IMG/VR virus record: IMGVR_UViG_2671180460_000013
DNA length: 26,013 bases
Strand: one strand, 5' to 3'
From: a virus
Taxonomy: Duplodnaviria > Heunggongvirae > Uroviricota > Caudoviricetes
The translations under genes and the position numbers were made by a program. This document shows, in pieces, positions 10,220 to 24,391 of the stretch. Position 1 is the first letter of the stretch. The number at the start of each line of letters is the position of its first letter. The notes under the pieces were generated by a model, which ran no database searches, was not told the origin of the DNA, and saw only the letters and a list, made by a program, of their open reading frames with translations.

Positions 10220-10562
10220 CAAGAGATACCGTAAAAGTCAGGTGGTCAAAAAAATCTTCGGTGTGGGCGCTAATCAGCAGGCGACCAGAAAGCGGGGTTT
10301 CTTCTGTCACACTGACCGTGCCAGGTGTGATGCGCTCATCATCTTCAATCAGTAGTGTCATCTGCATTATGAGGTCGGCACGAAGCGTCGGGCTTTTTTC
10401 AGCCAGCAGGCGCGTTGCCAGTCCGCTCTCAATGATGGCGTGCTGGCAGTCCTGGGCAATACTTTCCCTGTTGTTGCATAACACCGGCTCACTGGCGCTG
10501 TTCAGCGTGAGATTGCGACCGGTGATAAGCAAATCAATGTAAAGCGGTTTATCAGTATGCAT
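10212..10562 (-). CDS. small baseplate protein, tentatively GPW / gp25-like
   Basis: Internal ATG at 10560-10562 with GGAG RBS gives 116 aa, overlapping the tape-measure stop. Size and position match P2 gpW; motif match is loose. Confidence 0.45.
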   Translation of the reverse strand: MHTDKPLYIDLLITGRNLTLNSASEPVLCNNRESIAQDCQHAIIESGLATRLLAEKSPTLRADLIMQMTLLIEDDERITPGTVSVTEETPLSGRLLISAHTEDFFDHLTFTVSLDD

Positions 10563-12648
10563 GTAGCTCCATCCACTCGTTGAGACGGGCAGGAGATGGA
10601 TCCTGCACGTTGACGTTGACCACACGACGGGAGTTATCGATTGTGGTCTGGTTTTCGTTGTTGTTCTGCATCTCTGCCGCAATGCCACCCGGCCCCGCGC
10701 TGATGGCTTTACCACCGGTTAATACGGAGCCTTCGCCACTTCCTGTGCTTTCTGATGTGCCGATGTTAACGCCGGGGATCATGTTGAGTTTGTCCACAAT
10801 CCAGCCCCATGAATCACTGAAGGACTGTTTCACCAGTTCCCAGAGGTTACTGAAAATGTTCAGGATGCCGCCGGCGATATCCTTCAGGGCGTCCAGAGGT
10901 GAATGCGTGGAAAAATAGTTAACCAGTGCATTCCAGCCGTCCTGGATTGTGTTCCATGCATTGCCGAACCATGCCCCCATACTGCCGACCATTTCAGCCA
11001 CCCACTGAAAGGCGGCGGTGTCCATCAGTGCGGCTTTGATTTCATCCCAACGGGTGATCAGGAAATAAATGCCCACACCCAGCGCAGCCAGTGCCAGGAT
11101 GATTAATGTGATGGGGCTGAAAAGTAACTGTGTTGCAATTGCAGCTCCGCTGGTGACTGCGGTGTAGATTTTCATTGCTATGCCGGCGGCACCCAGCGCA
11201 ACAGAATAAAGCCAGAGTCCGGCGCGCTGTAATTTCAGCAGCGCCAGCTGAATTTTTGCTTTGACGTTGTATGTTCCCATAGCAATGGACATGGCCAGAT
11301 ACAGCGCCCTGACCGTTCGGGCAACTACAGTGAATGCCCACATGGTAGCCGTCAGTGTGCGTTTCAGCAGAATGAGAATCTTCAGAGGTGTAACTGCTGC
11401 CAGCCAGACCAGCCGCAGTCCTGTCCAGACAAACTTCGCCACACCCACCATAATGTTGACAACGGCACCCACTGCGGCAATGCCCAGCAGGGCGGCAGAC
11501 AGTAAACCAATAGCCCGTGTGATATTGGGATACAGACGTAACCAGGCAACAAAGGATTTACCGCCTTCGTTGCTTTTCTGGATAAACGGGTACAGAACAG
11601 GCAGCAACTGCGTGCCGATTTCGATGCGAATGCCGTTAATAATTGCGGCGGCCTGTTCCCATGGATCAGCCATGGCCTGCGCCATTTCGACAGCCTTATC
11701 CATCCCTTTGATATTGCCCAGCGTGGCGATATTCTTTTCAAGTCCGCCAATGTCCGCATTGAGTAATTTAATCATGGCCACAGCTTCATCGGAGCCAAAG
11801 GCGCTTTTCAGCAAATCGGAATCAGCCACTTTTGACAGATCACCAAATTTGCCCCTGATAAGTTTCATGATCTCGACAACACTTTTCATCGTGCCGTTTT
11901 TATTCACGAAATTAAGCCCCAGCTTTTTCTGGGCGCTGCCTACTGCGGCAAGAAATGCCTTGTACTTTGTCCCGGCCTCGCTGCCACTCATGGTGGCCTG
12001 CAGTTGTCCCAGCACGGCGAACTGTTCAGCCGCATCAATACCGGCCGCTTTTGCACTGGCACCCAGCGTGGTGAACGCCGCTGACATGTTATCGCCGGTT
12101 GTTTTAAACATTTGCACGGCGGTGGCGGTTTGCCCGGCGACCTGCTCCACCCATTTGCTTTTTCCCATGGCATCAGCCTGGTCTTTAAAGATGCCGTACA
12201 TGGTGCCCATGTAGGCGGTAATGGTCTGGCTGCTGGATTTGGTTGCTGCTGCCACCGTTGCTGATGCGGTGGTGAAGCGGGACAGCTCATCGTCAGTTAA
12301 CCCGGCAATGGCTGACTGGATGTCGTAAGAAGCACGCACAAAATCCTGCGCAGCCCCGCCGTATTCCATAGTGAAATCAACGGCGGCGCGGCTGAGTTTA
12401 CGCAATCCGGACTCTGCGACGCCCAGTGATTTCACCTCACCGAGCGCCCTGTCCATTTCAATGGCTGGCATCAGTGCCCCCTGAATGGCTGCACCCACTC
12501 CCCAGAGCGCAGCGCCTCCGGTAGCAATGTCCCGAAAGGCTCCCCGACTTGTTGCAGCAAATCCCTGAACCTGTCGCCCGGCTGCACGCAACGGCCTTGT
12601 CAGGCGGTCTGTCAGTTCAAGAAGTAATTCAAGGCGCTGTTGTGACAT
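10552..12648 (-). CDS. tail tape measure protein
   Basis: 698 aa, Ala/Gly-rich with a long hydrophobic central segment. Directly follows the frameshifted tail chaperone pair; its ATG overlaps the stop of the frameshift product. Confidence 0.8.
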   Translation of the reverse strand: MSQQRLELLLELTDRLTRPLRAAGRQVQGFAATSRGAFRDIATGGAALWGVGAAIQGALMPAIEMDRALGEVKSLGVAESGLRKLSRAAVDFTMEYGGAAQDFVRASYDIQSAIAGLTDDELSRFTTASATVAAATKSSSQTITAYMGTMYGIFKDQADAMGKSKWVEQVAGQTATAVQMFKTTGDNMSAAFTTLGASAKAAGIDAAEQFAVLGQLQATMSGSEAGTKYKAFLAAVGSAQKKLGLNFVNKNGTMKSVVEIMKLIRGKFGDLSKVADSDLLKSAFGSDEAVAMIKLLNADIGGLEKNIATLGNIKGMDKAVEMAQAMADPWEQAAAIINGIRIEIGTQLLPVLYPFIQKSNEGGKSFVAWLRLYPNITRAIGLLSAALLGIAAVGAVVNIMVGVAKFVWTGLRLVWLAAVTPLKILILLKRTLTATMWAFTVVARTVRALYLAMSIAMGTYNVKAKIQLALLKLQRAGLWLYSVALGAAGIAMKIYTAVTSGAAIATQLLFSPITLIILALAALGVGIYFLITRWDEIKAALMDTAAFQWVAEMVGSMGAWFGNAWNTIQDGWNALVNYFSTHSPLDALKDIAGGILNIFSNLWELVKQSFSDSWGWIVDKLNMIPGVNIGTSESTGSGEGSVLTGGKAISAGPGGIAAEMQNNNENQTTIDNSRRVVNVNVQDPSPARLNEWMELHAY

Positions 12649-13129
12649 TACGATCCCTTAAAAGCACGGATAATGCCGTTATTGACGGCGATGCTCATAT
12701 TTTCCCAGTAGTGGTTATCCAGCCAGACGGCGGCAGCCAGTGACTGCGGCGAGTCATCCTCGCCGGGCAGCCAGTGGCGGCGCAGAATCAGCATCCGGGT
12801 AAGGTCATTGCGATCAATGGCCCCCAGATGGCTTTTTATTTTTTTACGGTGATTTCCACTTCCGGCACAAACTCGTTATTCACGGCTGTTGCCAGGCTGG
12901 CCGGCATTCCTGGTTTTTCCAGCAACTGGTTCAGCAGATCGCGGTGCTCTTTAATCACGATACGGCGCAGGTAGTTTTTCAGCGGCGCGATTTTGTTATC
13001 CGGCATGAAGTCGTTCTGCAGGTCGTTGTAGGCTTTTACGGTCGGGATAAACGTCAGTTCATGCTCGCCGACCTGTAAAGTGATGGTGTTCTCTGCGGTA
13101 GTCTGGGTGTTTTTATCGTTCATCATCAT
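12648..13129 (-). CDS. tail assembly chaperone frameshift fusion product (E+E' / G-T analogue) made by a programmed -1 frameshift
   Basis: The -1 frame entered at the slippery site stays open for 63 codons (hand-translated, no stops) and ends at a TAA overlapping the tape-measure ATG (TAATG at 12646-12650). Confidence 0.6.
12836..13129 (-). CDS. tail assembly chaperone (P2 gpE / lambda gpG analogue)
   Basis: 97-aa ORF directly upstream of the tape measure gene, ending ...VKK-TAA on an A-rich slippery run. Three consecutive ATGs at 13121-13129; the third has the best RBS spacing. Confidence 0.7.
   Translation of the reverse strand: MMMNDKNTQTTAENTITLQVGEHELTFIPTVKAYNDLQNDFMPDNKIAPLKNYLRRIVIKEHRDLLNQLLEKPGMPASLATAVNNEFVPEVEITVKK
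12839..12845 (-). other. slippery heptamer A AAA AAA for the -1 ribosomal frameshift
   Basis: Transcript reads ACC GTA AAA AAA TAA; the X XXY YYZ heptamer sits at the last sense codons of the chaperone gene. Confidence 0.6.
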
Positions 13130-13155
13130 TTCCTTTTAAAGTCAAGAATAAGAGG

Positions 13156-13187
13156 GCTTAATAAGCCTGCAGGAAGGCTTATTAAGC
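13156..13187 (-). terminator. stem-loop (12-bp perfect inverted repeat) between the endolysin and the tail chaperone; candidate attenuator or partial terminator
   Basis: GCTTAATAAGCC, 8-nt loop, GGCTTATTAAGC, 7 nt after the endolysin stop. Followed on the transcript by a moderately U-rich tract (CCUCUUAUUCUU). Confidence 0.4.
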
Positions 13188-13193
13188 GTAAAA

Positions 13194-13535
13194 TCAGCGC
13201 ACGCCGTCGTGCTCAAGGCTGAAATGATTGCCATCCGGGCGGTTTTTAAAACGACCGCCCCATGCGCCACCAAGGGATTCCCAGTACTCGCCCAGCTCGC
13301 GGTAGGCCTCTGTGCGGGTCTGATATTCACCGTTAATAAACAGATTAAAATCCACGGCCAGCCGCTGGCAGTGCAGGCTGTTGGCAATGCCGGATCCCTT
13401 TTGTGCGTTGAGTTTTGCCTGTTCTGGCGTGCGGTACGCCTCACCGAACGTCAGGCCATAACCGCGCTGATGGGCAAACTGGATGAGTTTTCCGATCATG
13501 ACGGTAAATTGTTGTTGCTTATCGGAGAGTTTCAT
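13194..13535 (-). CDS. endolysin, M15-family zinc peptidase (L-alanyl-D-glutamate peptidase type)
   Basis: 113 aa. HCQRLAVD (H-x6-D) and C-terminal GNHFSLEH fit the M15 zinc-binding arrangement. AAGGAG RBS. Adjacent to the holin. Confidence 0.75.
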   Translation of the reverse strand: MKLSDKQQQFTVMIGKLIQFAHQRGYGLTFGEAYRTPEQAKLNAQKGSGIANSLHCQRLAVDFNLFINGEYQTRTEAYRELGEYWESLGGAWGGRFKNRPDGNHFSLEHDGVR

Positions 13536-13639
13536 TTTTGCTCCTTATGAGGTTGCTGAGGTTTGCGCAGCCAGTACCACAGTGCCCGGATAATTTTCCA
13601 GGCAATGGCGGCAGCTTTTTGTTCCCTGCGGGACAGCAT
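13532..13639 (-). CDS. small cationic amphipathic ORF (35 aa, MLSRREQKAAAIAWKIIRALWYWLRKPQQPHKEQK) between holin and endolysin
   Basis: Hand-translated; below the ORF-track size cutoff. ATG at 13637-13639 with GAGGAG RBS inside the holin 3' end. Its TGA overlaps the endolysin ATG (ATGA). Confidence 0.4.
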   Translation of the reverse strand: MLSRREQKAAAIAWKIIRALWYWLRKPQQPHKEQK

Positions 13640-13644
13640 TGCTG

Positions 13645-13941
13645 TTACTCCTCTTTGTTCTCTTTCTCGCCCAGCTTCCGGCGCATATGACGCAGGAAGA
13701 TTTCAACAATCTGGTAACCGGCAACGCCCATTGCGGTGCCTGCGCCGGCAATGGCCAGTGGGTCAAGGTTCGGGTAGCGAACCAGCAGGGCAGCGGCAGA
13801 AACACCCAGCGCGCTCCCCAGCAGGGTTCGGCCCACAAACAACCGCAACGTAATCGGCTCTGCGCCAGCCAGCACCCGACTTGCGGCAGCGATTCCGCCC
13901 AGAATGCCCAGAGTGATAATGGTGCGCTCATGCTCCTGCAT
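13645..13941 (-). CDS. holin (three predicted transmembrane segments, charged C-terminal tail)
   Basis: 98 aa with three hydrophobic stretches and a C-terminal RHMRRKLGEKENKEE. Directly upstream of the endolysin. GGGGTG RBS. Confidence 0.65.
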   Translation of the reverse strand: MQEHERTIITLGILGGIAAASRVLAGAEPITLRLFVGRTLLGSALGVSAAALLVRYPNLDPLAIAGAGTAMGVAGYQIVEIFLRHMRRKLGEKENKEE

Positions 13942-13944
13942 GGT

Positions 13945-14400
13945 TCACCCCATCAGTCCGCGCACGTCGTTCTCTGAGAGAACGGGCACGCCGTTGATAC
14001 GCACAAAGTCAGGGCTTGCCACCACGTACTTGATTTTGTGCGTGGTCAGATCTGCGCTCTCGGTGTCAATGCTTAACAGGCCGGAAAGCATCAGCTCACA
14101 ACCGAAGGCTTCAACGCGGATTTCTTCGGTTCCCGTATTGGCGTAAAACACAAAATCCATTGGCGGCAGGTCACGCCACGATCCCGCCTGAGCAGCCACT
14201 TCCCCGAGCTGGTTAAAGCTGCGGGTACTCATTTCGATTTCACCTTCGGCACTGACAGGGCCGCGCAGTTTGCCGTCAGGGATGCCACGGGTTTTGGCAA
14301 CGGCGCTTTCATCGCTGATGTCCAGTGAGATGCTTTTCACATGGATATCCGTTCCACCGATAAAAGTGTCAAACGCCATGCCGTTAATGCGGGTCGTCAT
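13945..14400 (-). CDS. tail tube protein (putative)
   Basis: 151 aa, immediately downstream of the sheath gene with an ATGA overlap. Assignment is by position and size, not motif. Confidence 0.6.
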   Translation of the reverse strand: MTTRINGMAFDTFIGGTDIHVKSISLDISDESAVAKTRGIPDGKLRGPVSAEGEIEMSTRSFNQLGEVAAQAGSWRDLPPMDFVFYANTGTEEIRVEAFGCELMLSGLLSIDTESADLTTHKIKYVVASPDFVRINGVPVLSENDVRGLMG

Positions 14401-15545
14401 GCGTTTTCCTCCAGAGATTTATCCAGCTGAATGCCCACTTTGATGGTTTTAGGGCAGGCGTAAGGGCGGACAACAATGCTGATGCTGACCGTCTTTTCGT
14501 CCTGCCAGGTGATAACCACGTCGCCTTTCCGGGGCGATTTCACTTCGCCCGGAAACGTGATGCCGTTAATTTGCATGGATTTCGCCATGGCACGCAGTGG
14601 GCGGGCAAACAGCGTTTCATGTGCGGCAATGCTGCCCGGCGTGCTGTTCAGCGAGCGGTCGGCAATCTTGGGGATGGCCATCAGCCGCACGCGGCGCGCC
14701 ACCTTATCAGCAATGCGGACATGCTCAATGACGTTGTAGTCCCCGCCTTCCACCTCAAGTGTTACACCGTCAGCCCAGTAAAGGCCGTCATAGTCGGCAT
14801 ACCACATGGGCACGCTGTAGCGGGCGGTTGCCAGTGCCTGCAGAGTGTCGAGATCAATTGCCTGCCCAGTGCTGTCTTTCGGGCGTTCTGTGGTTTTCAG
14901 TGCGGACAGGGGCCCGGTTGCCACACGTGCCGGACTGTCAGCAATGGTGACGGCGCTGTTACACAGGCGACCGGCAAGAACGCCCGGTTCAAATCCAAAA
15001 ATCTCCGGAACCAGCATGACCTGCGGGGCTGCAATGCCTTTCTGTAGTGCGGTCAGTTCGGCAACGTATTCCGCCCAGGTTTTACTGTTGTCGTTGGCGG
15101 CGATGGTCAGGATGAACCAGATGCGGCGCTGATATTTATTGATGATGGTCTGACGTAACGCCTGTATGGCGTTGATGTCATCCTTCGTGCTGACCGGCTC
15201 GGTGATCACCACGCCTTCAACTGAAACAGTTTCCTGAGCCGCCAGTATGGCGTTCTGCCATACCTGGCAGGCTGGCGTTGCTTCTTTGCCTTTGCCGGCT
15301 TCCGGCAGAACGGCAACATAGAAAAAGGCATTCTGTCCGGCATTGGTCAGTGCAGACTGAAGGAAGTTCTTCAGCGGGCTGGCGTTCTTTCCCAGTAGCT
15401 CATCCAGATCGCTGTTGGCATTAACCGGCAGAACCTCACCTTTGTTGTTTTGTGCATTGCCCACAAACAGCAGCGTATTTTCCACGCCGTCCGGTGAACT
15501 GCTGAATGTGTTGTACTGTTCAATCGTGACAGATGGCCATGTCAT
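14397..15545 (-). CDS. tail sheath protein (putative)
   Basis: Internal ATG at 15543-15545 with AGGAGA RBS gives 382 aa (MTWPSVTIEQY...). Position between tail-completion genes and tube. Not P2 FI-like in sequence. Confidence 0.6.
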   Translation of the reverse strand: MTWPSVTIEQYNTFSSSPDGVENTLLFVGNAQNNKGEVLPVNANSDLDELLGKNASPLKNFLQSALTNAGQNAFFYVAVLPEAGKGKEATPACQVWQNAILAAQETVSVEGVVITEPVSTKDDINAIQALRQTIINKYQRRIWFILTIAANDNSKTWAEYVAELTALQKGIAAPQVMLVPEIFGFEPGVLAGRLCNSAVTIADSPARVATGPLSALKTTERPKDSTGQAIDLDTLQALATARYSVPMWYADYDGLYWADGVTLEVEGGDYNVIEHVRIADKVARRVRLMAIPKIADRSLNSTPGSIAAHETLFARPLRAMAKSMQINGITFPGEVKSPRKGDVVITWQDEKTVSISIVVRPYACPKTIKVGIQLDKSLEENA

Positions 15546-15564
15546 GGTTTGTCTCCTGATTTTG

Positions 15565-16278
15565 TTATCTCGTGCCGCCGTAATGCAGGCTGCGCAGCTG
15601 CGCTTCCAGAATGCGGGCAAATTCAGCATCGCTGGCTCCCAGAAATGCGCGGGAGGGGATTTTGATTTCCCATACACGTTTTTTCTGCTCGCCTTTCAGA
15701 ATGCTGATCACCAGTCCGGCCTGCGCCATACTCATGTTTTCCATAATCCATTTCAGAGAAGGCTTTCTGCGTCCCCTGCGTCCGGTTTTTTTGCTGACTG
15801 CGCCGACGGGGGCGCGAAAGCCCAGAGAAAGAAGGCGTTCTGCCTGCCGTCGTGTGGCGGGACGGGTGCGCATGGCTTCGCTGTCCCGGCGTTTTGTGGC
15901 GCGGCCTTTGATGGTTGCGCCGTGCTGTTGCACCCACGCGACCGCCCCACCATGAGAGCCGGTGTTGTAATCCCCTTTTTTGAAGAAAAGGCGGACACTT
16001 TTCCCGCTGCCGTCAACCCTGATGGCCAGCAGTTTCGGCAGTCCCAGCAGCATTTTGTTTTTATACCTGCCGCTGGCTTTATCCGGTCTTTTTCGTGGTG
16101 CCCAGGCTGCCCCCTCCGGTGTTCGCTGTGCTTTCACATTGCGTCGTGCAGCCGGTATCAGGCCGTATTTCGCAATGCGAACCAGCAGCTTTCTGGCCTT
16201 TGCCGGCGGAAGTTCTGCCTCTCTGATGGCGCGACGAACCAGCCGGAGTTGTGACTCGTTAATCACGGGGCGCGTCAT
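15565..16278 (-). CDS. virion morphogenesis / tail completion protein (P2 gpS / Mu G family) with a C-terminal extension
   Basis: 237 aa. Region RRNVKAQRTPEGAAWAPRKRP matches the recalled hallmark of this family. ATGA overlap with the upstream R-like gene. Confidence 0.65.
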   Translation of the reverse strand: MTRPVINESQLRLVRRAIREAELPPAKARKLLVRIAKYGLIPAARRNVKAQRTPEGAAWAPRKRPDKASGRYKNKMLLGLPKLLAIRVDGSGKSVRLFFKKGDYNTGSHGGAVAWVQQHGATIKGRATKRRDSEAMRTRPATRRQAERLLSLGFRAPVGAVSKKTGRRGRRKPSLKWIMENMSMAQAGLVISILKGEQKKRVWEIKIPSRAFLGASDAEFARILEAQLRSLHYGGTR

Positions 16279-21985: not shown

Positions 21986-23012
21986 AAAGAAAAAATCCCC
22001 CGTGTTACACGATGGCGTGGCAAAAAAAACAGCCAGCAAAATGACTTTTATTGAATTTGGTGACCCGGAACCGGTCGCTGCATGGGGCTGTTATTACGGC
22101 TCGCTCTGGGATGGCTATAACGGCTGGTACACGCCGCCCATTGAGCGCATGGATCTCGCCATGTTGTCCAATATCGCACCGTATCACGGCGCGGTATTGC
22201 GTGCGCGCGTCAATATGATCATGCAGGGTTTTCGGGGTGGCGGTGGTATGACACACGCCGCCATGGCGGCAGCAGTAACCAATCTGCTGATATTCGGGGA
22301 TATGGGGTTGCTTAAAGTGCGCAATGGCTTCGGTCGAGTGGTGCGCCTGCATACGTTACCTTCTCTGTACCTGCGGCGTAACAACGAGGGTGGCACGGTG
22401 ATTGTGCAGGCGGCACTGGAAGATCTCGTTTACCCGCCAGGCGAAGTGGTGTTCGTGGCCGTTTATGACCCGCAACAGCAGGTTTACGGTGTCCCGGATT
22501 ATATTCACGGGATGGAATCCGCCATGCTGAATGTGGATGCCACCCGCTTTCGCCGCAAGTATTACAAGAACGGCGCACATCTTGGTTATATCCTGTATTC
22601 CAGTGACCCGGACATGGATCCCGAGCTCGAGGCGGAATTCCGTAAAAAGATAGAGGCGTCAAAAGGGGCGGGCAATTTTAAATCCATGTTTATCAATATA
22701 CCGGGCGGAGACAAAGAAGGCGTTAAGGTGATCCCTATCGGGGATTCAGGTACAAAAGATGAGTTCCTGAATATAAAAACCATCAGTGCCCAGGATCAGC
22801 TTGTTGCGCACCGTTTCCCACCCGGACTTGCCGGCATCATTCCCGCAAATACGGCCGGGCTTGGTGACCCACTGAAATCCCGCGAGGCATATTACAGGGA
22901 TGAGGTTATCCCGATGCGCCGCCTGATTATGGAGGGGATCAACAGCGACCCGGATATCAGACGACTGGGGGAGGTGAAATTTATTCTTGATTTTGATGAA
23001 CCCATGGAGTGA
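21978..23012 (+). CDS. Q: portal protein, P2 gpQ-like
   Basis: 344 aa, the same length as P2 gpQ as recalled. Its ATG overlaps the last codons of P (GATGAGTAA). Confidence 0.85.
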   Translation: MSKKKKSPVLHDGVAKKTASKMTFIEFGDPEPVAAWGCYYGSLWDGYNGWYTPPIERMDLAMLSNIAPYHGAVLRARVNMIMQGFRGGGGMTHAAMAAAVTNLLIFGDMGLLKVRNGFGRVVRLHTLPSLYLRRNNEGGTVIVQAALEDLVYPPGEVVFVAVYDPQQQVYGVPDYIHGMESAMLNVDATRFRRKYYKNGAHLGYILYSSDPDMDPELEAEFRKKIEASKGAGNFKSMFINIPGGDKEGVKVIPIGDSGTKDEFLNIKTISAQDQLVAHRFPPGLAGIIPANTAGLGDPLKSREAYYRDEVIPMRRLIMEGINSDPDIRRLGEVKFILDFDEPME

Positions 23013-24076: not shown

Positions 24077-24391
24077 TCACTTCGGGAAAAACGCCTGAAT
24101 ATTTTTTTTCACCTGCTGCATATGGGTGGCGCTGTCTGCTGCTGGTTGCGCCGGTTTTTCAGGCTGTACTGGTAGCGGTGGCATCCGTATTTCGTCTTCT
24201 GACCATTCTGCCAGCGAATACGCCAACGCGGGGTGGCGTTTTATAAGAGCCAGTCCGGCCAGAAAAGCCGCGCGTTGTGCGCGGCTGCGTTCGGAGGCTG
24301 GCAGGCTGTCGAGGTAACTGCACGCCTCCCGTTCGCTCTTGACGACGGCGGGCTTCAGATAGAAACTTATCCGTCTGGTTGGTGTCGTCAT
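24077..24391 (-). CDS. parR: ParR-like centromere-binding protein (ribbon-helix-helix type, type II partition)
   Basis: Internal ATG at 24389-24391 with an AAGGAG RBS inside the parM 3' end. RISFYLKP...LDSLPASERSRAQRAAFLAGLAL parallels recalled R1 ParR (IAFKLNPD...LDSIPQGERSRLNRAALTAGLAL). Confidence 0.75.
   Translation of the reverse strand: MTTPTRRISFYLKPAVVKSEREACSYLDSLPASERSRAQRAAFLAGLALIKRHPALAYSLAEWSEDEIRMPPLPVQPEKPAQPAADSATHMQQVKKNIQAFFPK

Follow-up and report, generated by a model that had tools for sequence, protein, structure and literature searches.

The stretch of DNA analysed here, referred to below as the window, comprises the 26,013 nucleotides of IMG/VR virus record IMGVR_UViG_2671180460_000013; it belongs to an HP1-like (Peduoviridae) prophage of E. 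coli, whose tail assembly chaperone pair lies on the minus strand. Three elements make up this locus. The open reading frame (ORF) of the tail assembly chaperone, which would specify the short, major product of 97 residues (MMMNDKNT...EITVKK), occupies minus-strand positions 13129..12836, stop codon included. It is followed, in the -1 frame, by an extension at 12839..12648 on the same strand that consists of 63 codons (12839..12651) and a TAA stop (12650..12648). Also on the minus strand, at 12648..10552, lies the 698-residue tail tape measure gene, which is recognised by Pfam (PhageMin_Tail, E=2.4e-29) and named 'phage tail tape measure protein' in RefSeq. The ORFs of chaperone and extension overlap, and within the tail module the tape measure gene follows them immediately. 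This region is 99.9% identical to E. coli prophages, occurs in 42 of 5,426 complete genomes, each time in the chromosome, and has HP1-like Peduoviridae as its phage relatives. The start of the chaperone is ambiguous: three consecutive ATG codons lie at 13129..13123, and RefSeq picks the third (13123), which gives a protein of 95 residues. This third ATG is better spaced from an upstream AAGGA than the first two.

How are the two overlapping frames connected? Read directly on the minus strand, the 3' end of the chaperone ORF is …GAA ATC ACC GTA AAA AAA TAA. It contains the slippery heptamer A_AAA_AAA at 12845..12839 (0-frame GT[A AAA AAA] TAA), the proposed site of a -1 shift, and directly 3' of it the 0-frame TAA at 12838..12836, a possible 'shifty stop' context. 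Translation in the -1 frame from A12839 yields IKSHLGAIDRNDLTRMLILRRHWLPGEDDSPQSLAAAVWLDNHYWENMSIAVNNGIIRAFKGS, and the last base of its stop codon (12650..12648) is also the first base of the tape measure ATG (12648..12646), so that the two share one A in the sequence TAATG. The initial annotation of this DNA had described exactly this arrangement, with the chaperone ending in GTA AAA AAA TAA, 63 uninterrupted -1 codons behind it and a stop that overlaps the tape measure start; our re-translation returned exactly 63 sense codons and no misread stop. The full fusion would be encoded by complement(join(12839..13129, 12648..12839)) and count 160 residues, with …ITVKKIKSHLGAI… as the predicted peptide across the junction.

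Both parts of this predicted fusion belong to protein families. Pfam assigns residues 16-97 to Phage_TAC_10, a tail assembly chaperone family (E=6e-26), and residues 116-159, all of them read in the -1 frame, to DUF6890 (PF21830, E=4.8e-23); the latter match scores 81-84 bits and lies above the gathering threshold of 23.6. When the N-terminal part is modelled alone, its predicted fold finds its best matches among chaperone-type proteins, including the HK97 tail assembly chaperone. Family assignment and predicted fold thus agree in pointing to a tail assembly chaperone. PHROGs places the chaperone part in phrog_1214 and the extension in phrog_7050, both labelled 'unknown function', NCBIfam has no model for either part, and a sequence search of solved structures returned nothing significant (best match 3fgx, E 0.71). 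The DUF6890 model spans extension residues 19-62 only. The first 18 residues (12839..12786), which are conserved with the consensus [IL]-x-x-R-x-x-x-I-[ED]-x-N-x-L-[ET]-Q… and link the domain to the heptamer, fall outside the model, presumably because it was built from ORFs that had been truncated at the start codons chosen by gene callers.

Is the relation between heptamer, stop and extension kept in related phages? A tblastn search with the 160-residue fusion against 50,697 phage records matched 76 of them, and every match listed, among them those in HP1, HP2, K139, Kappa, phiO18P, ESSI-2 and YenM_324, is split into two pieces that lie in two reading frames. A scan of IMG/VR yielded 448 contigs with a relative, of which 80 were kept, and loci from annotated records were added. 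The junctions were then analysed without presuming a heptamer, and the 115 loci reduced to 79 distinct junctions, with protein identities of 30-100%. Of these, 76 have the extension in the -1 frame, and their last seven bases before the chaperone stop read AAAAAAC (50 junctions) or AAAAAAA (26). The other three, all from IMG/VR (L058, L088 and L089), likewise have A_AAA_AAC followed by a stop and an intact extension in the -1 frame, which brings the totals to 26 junctions with A_AAA_AAA, 53 with A_AAA_AAC and 79 of 79 with a -1 extension. In L058, L088 and L089 the body of the chaperone is broken by extra indels, and these loci represent decaying prophages or assembly errors. A stop codon (TAA, TGA or TAG) immediately follows the heptamer at each of the 79 junctions. 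The interval in which both frames are open can be as short as 13 nucleotides, for example AGTAAAAAACTAA in Yersinia phage YenM_324, which leaves no other place for the change of frame.

A gapless nucleotide alignment of 97 columns, built from 66 distinct junction sequences, has a mean column identity of 75%; T12, A13-A18 and T20, the first base of the stop codon, are invariant in it. In 78 of 78 loci the first A of the heptamer is the third base of an NTA codon (GTA in 74, CTA in three and ATA in one). GTA is the rarest valine codon, with a share of 11% in the structural genes of the prophage and 18% in the chaperone genes of the family. Since the amino acid encoded by the NTA codon varies while its third-position A is fixed, the constraint acts on the nucleotide sequence, as it would for a recoding signal. 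Position 7 of the heptamer (12839; alignment column 19) is A in 26 and C in 53 of the 79 junctions; G and T do not occur there. Replacing A by G would be synonymous in the variants that end in a lysine codon, and would turn the heptamer into A_AAA_AAG, a highly efficient site in E. coli. The lack of G possibly reflects selection against too much frameshifting, in a count that ignores phylogenetic non-independence.

Could the extension simply be a gene of its own? RefSeq/PGAP annotates it that way, as a 48-residue 'DUF6890 family protein' that starts at an internal ATG (12794..12648, minus strand) and is separate from a 95-residue 'putative phage tail assembly chaperone'; two independent genes, the second of them possibly translated by reinitiation once ribosomes have terminated at the chaperone stop, would require no recoding. 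The window indeed has this in-frame ATG, 42 nucleotides past the chaperone stop, several phage records also carry a separate small ORF, and Pfam DUF6890 and phrog_7050 were both built on such stand-alone ORFs. The start codon itself, however, is poorly kept: its column reads ATG in 13 of the 66 aligned relatives and a non-start codon (TAT, GCG, TAC, GTA, GCC, TTC or TTT) in 39, no Shine-Dalgarno (SD)-like sequence precedes the ATG of the window, and 51 of the 66 sequences have no ATG among their first 22 extension codons. Conservation sets in well before it. The extension peptides of 24 distinct loci align without gaps from the first codon past the heptamer, and I8, N11 and L13, upstream of the window's Met16, are conserved, whereas Met16 is not. 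Column entropies for the three codon positions of the -1 frame are 0.72/0.87/1.45 over extension codons 2-15 and 0.77/0.53/1.41 over codons 16-26; the third-position periodicity of codons 2-15 indicates that the sequence from the heptamer to the annotated ATG is likewise coding in the -1 frame. The 15 codons before the ATG are open in every relative, gapless and conserved at the protein level. An exhaustive HMMER search with the 63-residue extension against 1.84 billion representative proteins gave 43 matches, all of them stand-alone ORFs of 28-67 residues, whose called starts scatter over query positions 6-24. We therefore regard two independent genes as very improbable and interpret the 48-residue RefSeq ORF as the C-terminal two thirds of a frameshift extension, not as an independent gene.

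Among the same 1.84 billion representatives there is no in-frame fusion of chaperone and extension, which indicates that the frame break is maintained everywhere. Such maintenance is expected if two products are needed in a set ratio. Natural in-frame fusions were also considered as a 'Rosetta stone' for the pair, and this idea was dropped: at three apparent loci the chaperone gene proved to carry additional, damaging indels. A single in-frame 'fusion' was seen, P0005, a protein of 96 residues from Salmonella enterica serovar Montevideo that retains both Pfam domains. It results from a deletion (corresponding to window positions ~12969..12780) that joined chaperone …KNYLRR to extension HWLPGEDD…, apparently by recombination between two LRR-coding repeats (CTGCGCCGC), and probably marks a defective prophage.

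We consider it highly probable that a programmed -1 ribosomal frameshift yields the 160-residue fusion. The initial annotation had proposed the same, and the invariant heptamer, the conserved extension that lacks a start codon and the position before the tape measure gene all lend it support. Most ribosomes would translate the 95-97 codons of the chaperone and terminate at the TAA at 12838..12836, and a minority would slip back by one nucleotide on A_AAA_AAA (12845..12839). At this site the only tRNA-Lys of E. coli could re-pair perfectly in the -1 frame, either as a pair of tRNAs in the P and A sites or as a lone peptidyl-tRNA with the stop codon in the A site. The slipped ribosomes would read 63 more codons and end at the TAA that overlaps the tape measure start. 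Two proteins that share the N-terminal chaperone domain would be made, at a constant ratio of probably a few per cent. If gpG and gpGT of phage lambda serve as a guide, the domain common to both would coat the tape measure protein, the domain gained by the frameshift (DUF6890) would recruit the tube protein, which would then polymerise around the tape measure, and neither form of the chaperone would stay in the virion.

Several observations count against this interpretation. The pattern as such is not beyond chance: the window contains 12 runs of seven A where shuffles predict 7.75, and the ends of 14 of its 40 long ORFs are followed by at least 63 open codons in the -1 frame, long open stretches of this kind being common because genes overlap in a compact genome. 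The extension has no detectable homology to P2 E' or to any domain of known function, so the role in recruiting the tube rests on analogy. The searchable literature contains no junction-peptide, reporter, Western blot, mass-spectrometry or genetic data for HP1-like phages. Nor did a conserved stimulatory element emerge around the heptamer. RNAalifold finds no consensus structure in the 66 codon-registered sequences, and the structures predicted downstream differ between clades. The recurrent hairpin of the ESSI-2 type (alignment columns 28-35 with 51-58) shows no covariation, and 50.6% of its cells are paired, the same as in shuffles. In close relatives of the window, substitutions weaken the candidate hairpin described below and are not compensated. 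The alignment further lacks a conserved SD-like element about 10 nucleotides upstream of the heptamer. Finally, slippage of RNA polymerase would lead to the same protein, so that sequence cannot strictly separate the two mechanisms.

Does the unremarkable raw pattern mean that the extension has no function? It might be a by-product of base composition or of the overlap with the tape measure gene, or the result of a sequencing error or a pseudogene of one longer gene, and besides the frequency of such patterns in the window, the damaged chaperone genes in three related contigs would fit this explanation. The significance of the observation, however, derives from the Pfam match on the extension and from conservation, not from the pattern. 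The extension matches a curated Pfam family (E=5e-23) and is conserved down to ~37% identity in phages of Haemophilus, Vibrio, Aeromonas, Yersinia, Cronobacter and Salmonella; the same frame break recurs across the 79 distinct junctions, and 42 complete E. coli genomes share it; the representative proteins include no in-frame version; and the one in-frame fusion seen is a deletion variant. Conservation effectively refutes a non-functional extension, and the range of hosts and identities excludes a single mis-assembled source for the related sequences.

RNA polymerase that adds one A on the A7 run would produce an A8 messenger and from it the identical 160-residue fusion (…VKKIKS…). The site in the window is a homopolymeric A7 run, and programmed transcriptional realignment in bacteria is known to take place on runs of A (PMC3711429). 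The relatives argue otherwise: 53 of the 79 junctions have A_AAA_AAC, with six A only and the X_XXY_YYZ pattern kept, and realignment is associated with runs of more than seven A in the literature cited in PMC3711429. The run is not lengthened in any relative, although this would be expected under selection for slippage, and the invariant adjacent stop and fixed register are features of ribosomal sites. With two thirds of the relatives carrying six A and then a C, and none a longer run, transcriptional slippage is disfavoured and appears to us an improbable source of the fusion, though a conceivable one in the A7 variants; we infer that the slip is ribosomal.

What, then, would stimulate a ribosomal -1 shift at this site? 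The initial annotation had called for a search for a downstream stem-loop or pseudoknot. The window has a candidate, an irregular hairpin of uncertain status at 12833..12790 (minus strand) that starts 5 nucleotides past the heptamer, with a predicted energy of -19.5 kcal/mol and a z score of -2.1 for the 59-nucleotide segment. In 23 non-redundant relatives, the 60 nucleotides past the heptamer have a mean z score of -1.91, with 48% below -2; when nine control offsets are taken within these loci, the mean lies between -0.1 and -0.8. This position-specific thermodynamic enrichment is all that is left in favour of a stimulatory structure; the lack of an RNAalifold consensus, the lack of covariation and the uncompensated changes speak against a conserved one. 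A stimulatory downstream structure is accordingly possible but unproven. Upstream of the heptamer only a GGA triplet is conserved; it derives from a conserved glutamate codon (…G GAA ATC…), and HP1 and K139 are among the phages that lack it.

The slippery sequence itself would be consistent with a low yield. A_AAA_AAA and A_AAA_AAC are far less shift-prone in E. coli than A_AAA_AAG (PMC5009743), and in E. coli cassettes A_AAA_AAA gave ~10% and tail-chaperone cassettes 6-7% frameshifting (PMC3711429). Low shift-proneness of A_AAA_AA(A/C) fits the low ratio needed for tail chaperones. The 0-frame stop that abuts the heptamer at 79 of 79 junctions moreover suggests a contribution of a 'shifty stop', described by Weiss et al. 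1987 as cited in PMC5009743. A more far-reaching combination, in which the 'shifty stop' is obligate, slippage occurs mainly while the stop codon fills the A site and a peptidyl-tRNA (Lys or Asn) waits at the heptamer, the ratio is set by competition between release factor and slippage, A_AAA_AAG is avoided to keep that ratio low and DUF6890 is an independent 'T-like' domain, is a tentative reading that we think somewhat unlikely to hold in all its parts. If it were true, the ratio would be sensitive to the termination capacity of the host and would not be set by downstream RNA structure, the strict avoidance of A_AAA_AAG would amount to selection for a low ratio, and DUF6890 would be a tube-recruiting domain unrelated to those of lambda and P2.

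How does the pair compare with known systems? The slippery site of lambda is G_GGA_AAG, whereas the heptamer here is A_AAA_AA(A/C), and the downstream structure at the lambda site has been reported to be dispensable. Further differences from lambda are the 0-frame stop immediately behind the heptamer in every relative, the contractile tail of the phage and the lysis cassette between the tube and chaperone genes; the prophage proteins show no sequence similarity to gpG or gpT, and the prophage pair is known from sequence alone. For lambda, programmed -1 frameshifting between gpG and gpGT is documented (Levin, Hendrix & Casjens 1993; Xu, Hendrix & Duda 2004, 2013, 2014, as cited in PMC5009743), the gpG:gpGT ratio is 30:1 and the T domain binds the major tail protein (PMC5009743). 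The efficiency of the P2 frameshift is 2-3 fold higher than that of lambda (PMC5009743). Position, frame, start-less extension, heptamer, conservation and predicted fold together would place the prophage pair in the class of frameshifted tail assembly chaperone pairs of the lambda G/GT type.

The parallel with P2 (NC_001895; Christie et al. 2002) is closer in some respects. P2 belongs to the same family, Peduoviridae, and its pair occupies the same place before the tape measure gene T, is of a similar size class (E 91 and E+E' 142 residues, compared with 97 and 160 here), and also relies on a -1 shift into an extension that ends at or overlaps the start of T. P2, however, slips on T_TTT_TTG ~20 nucleotides before the E stop, whereas the heptamer here adjoins the stop; its E+E' protein consists of Phage_TAC_7 and Phage_P2_GpE, the prophage fusion of Phage_TAC_10 and DUF6890 only; and the P2 fusion is annotated and experimentally verified, while that of the prophage is predicted from sequence. 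Comparison with P2 E+E' by hhalign, with profiles of 14 and 41 sequences, gave probabilities of 0.2-0.5%, and none of 41 DUF6890 members matched Phage_P2_GpE at E<=1. The IMG/VR relatives of P2 E+E' are 99-100% identical and could not be used for a profile on the P2 side. A short HW(L/P)P.E motif is the sole likeness to P2 E' and does not amount to evidence for a common origin. The Pfam families, the hhalign probabilities below 1% and the 0/41 matches all speak against placing the pair in the P2 E/E' protein family. Where the initial annotation had spoken of the conserved E/E' or G/GT arrangement, organisation, position and frame bear it out, but homology to P2 E/E' is not detectable.

A-rich -1 sites of the same lysine-codon class, at which the single tRNA-Lys of E. 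coli re-pairs, are found in E. coli dnaX (A_AAA_AAG), in IS1 insA-insB' (A_AAA_AAC) and in g-t of the haloarchaeal virus HCTV-2 (A_AAA_AAC) (PMC5009743). HCTV-2 thus documents A_AAA_AAC in the context of a tail chaperone. dnaX differs in having the far more efficient heptamer ending in AAG together with a defined upstream SD sequence and a downstream hairpin; in the present family position 7 is never G, and there is neither a conserved SD-like element nor a covarying hairpin.

Why has the fusion been overlooked? P2 E+E' is annotated as a joined coding sequence with the -1 site marked. By contrast, in 11 phage records that we inspected (HP1, YenM_324, P05B, ESSI-2, phiO18P, L9-1, yong1, K139, PV94, SW3 and ESSI2_ev015) the extension is either an unannotated gap of ~190 nucleotides before the tape measure gene or a separate small ORF, and neither these nor the RefSeq prophage contain a joined coding sequence for chaperone and extension. 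In a 2024 description of the related Aeromonas phage phiA051, ORF08 is a 'tail assembly chaperone' and ORF09 a 'hypothetical protein' (PMC11292799). The expectation that gene callers would miss the fusion is thus borne out: RefSeq/PGAP splits it, and 0/12 related records join it. The gap is systematic and extends over hundreds of prophages and phages, including the 448 IMG/VR contigs and 42 complete E. coli genomes.

Programmed frameshifting in tail chaperone genes is textbook knowledge. Christie et al. (2002) are said to have found the E/E' arrangement conserved among P2-related phages, and Xu et al. (2004) reportedly surveyed many phages. The searchable literature describes no frameshift for HP1-like phages and does not mention DUF6890, although an earlier listing of HP1 or K139 in Christie et al. 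2002 or Xu et al. 2004 is possible. The HP1-like pair would be a well-supported further instance of a known phenomenon; it changes no concept, and its value, modest but real, is practical and lies in annotation. DUF6890 and phrog_7050 appear to represent the frameshift-only C-terminal domain of a Phage_TAC_10 chaperone and should be read as such, not as a gene of their own. The family also offers a natural test set of 79 distinct junctions, which come in two heptamer variants and always have the stop adjacent, on which frameshift predictors could be benchmarked and on which one could ask how a low ratio is set without an obvious conserved RNA stimulator.

The genes upstream of the pair are identified by Pfam as sheath (DUF2586), tube (Phage_HP1_Orf24, at 14400..13945), holin and M15 endolysin. 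The last two form a lysis cassette (holin at 13941..13645, M15 peptidase at 13535..13194) inserted between the tube and chaperone genes (13130..13945, minus strand). No spanin gene is annotated in this cassette in a near-identical RefSeq prophage; Rz-like genes occupy the equivalent place in HP1, YenM_324, ESSI-2 and phiO18P. The 64-nucleotide gap between the endolysin stop and the chaperone start contains, at 13156..13187 (minus strand), a perfect 13-base-pair inverted repeat, GCTTAATAAGCC…GGCTTATTAAGC, with a weak T-rich tail behind it, which is terminator-like by consensus scan. This repeat may act as a partial terminator; alternatively, it may serve processing or stability between the lysis and tail genes. 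The start of the sheath gene is ambiguous as well: its longest ORF (15677..14397, minus strand) encodes 426 residues from a GTG, 44 codons more than the 382 residues in RefSeq. Two runs of eight A occur elsewhere in the window, at 22022..22029 on the plus strand and at 24102..24109 on the minus strand.

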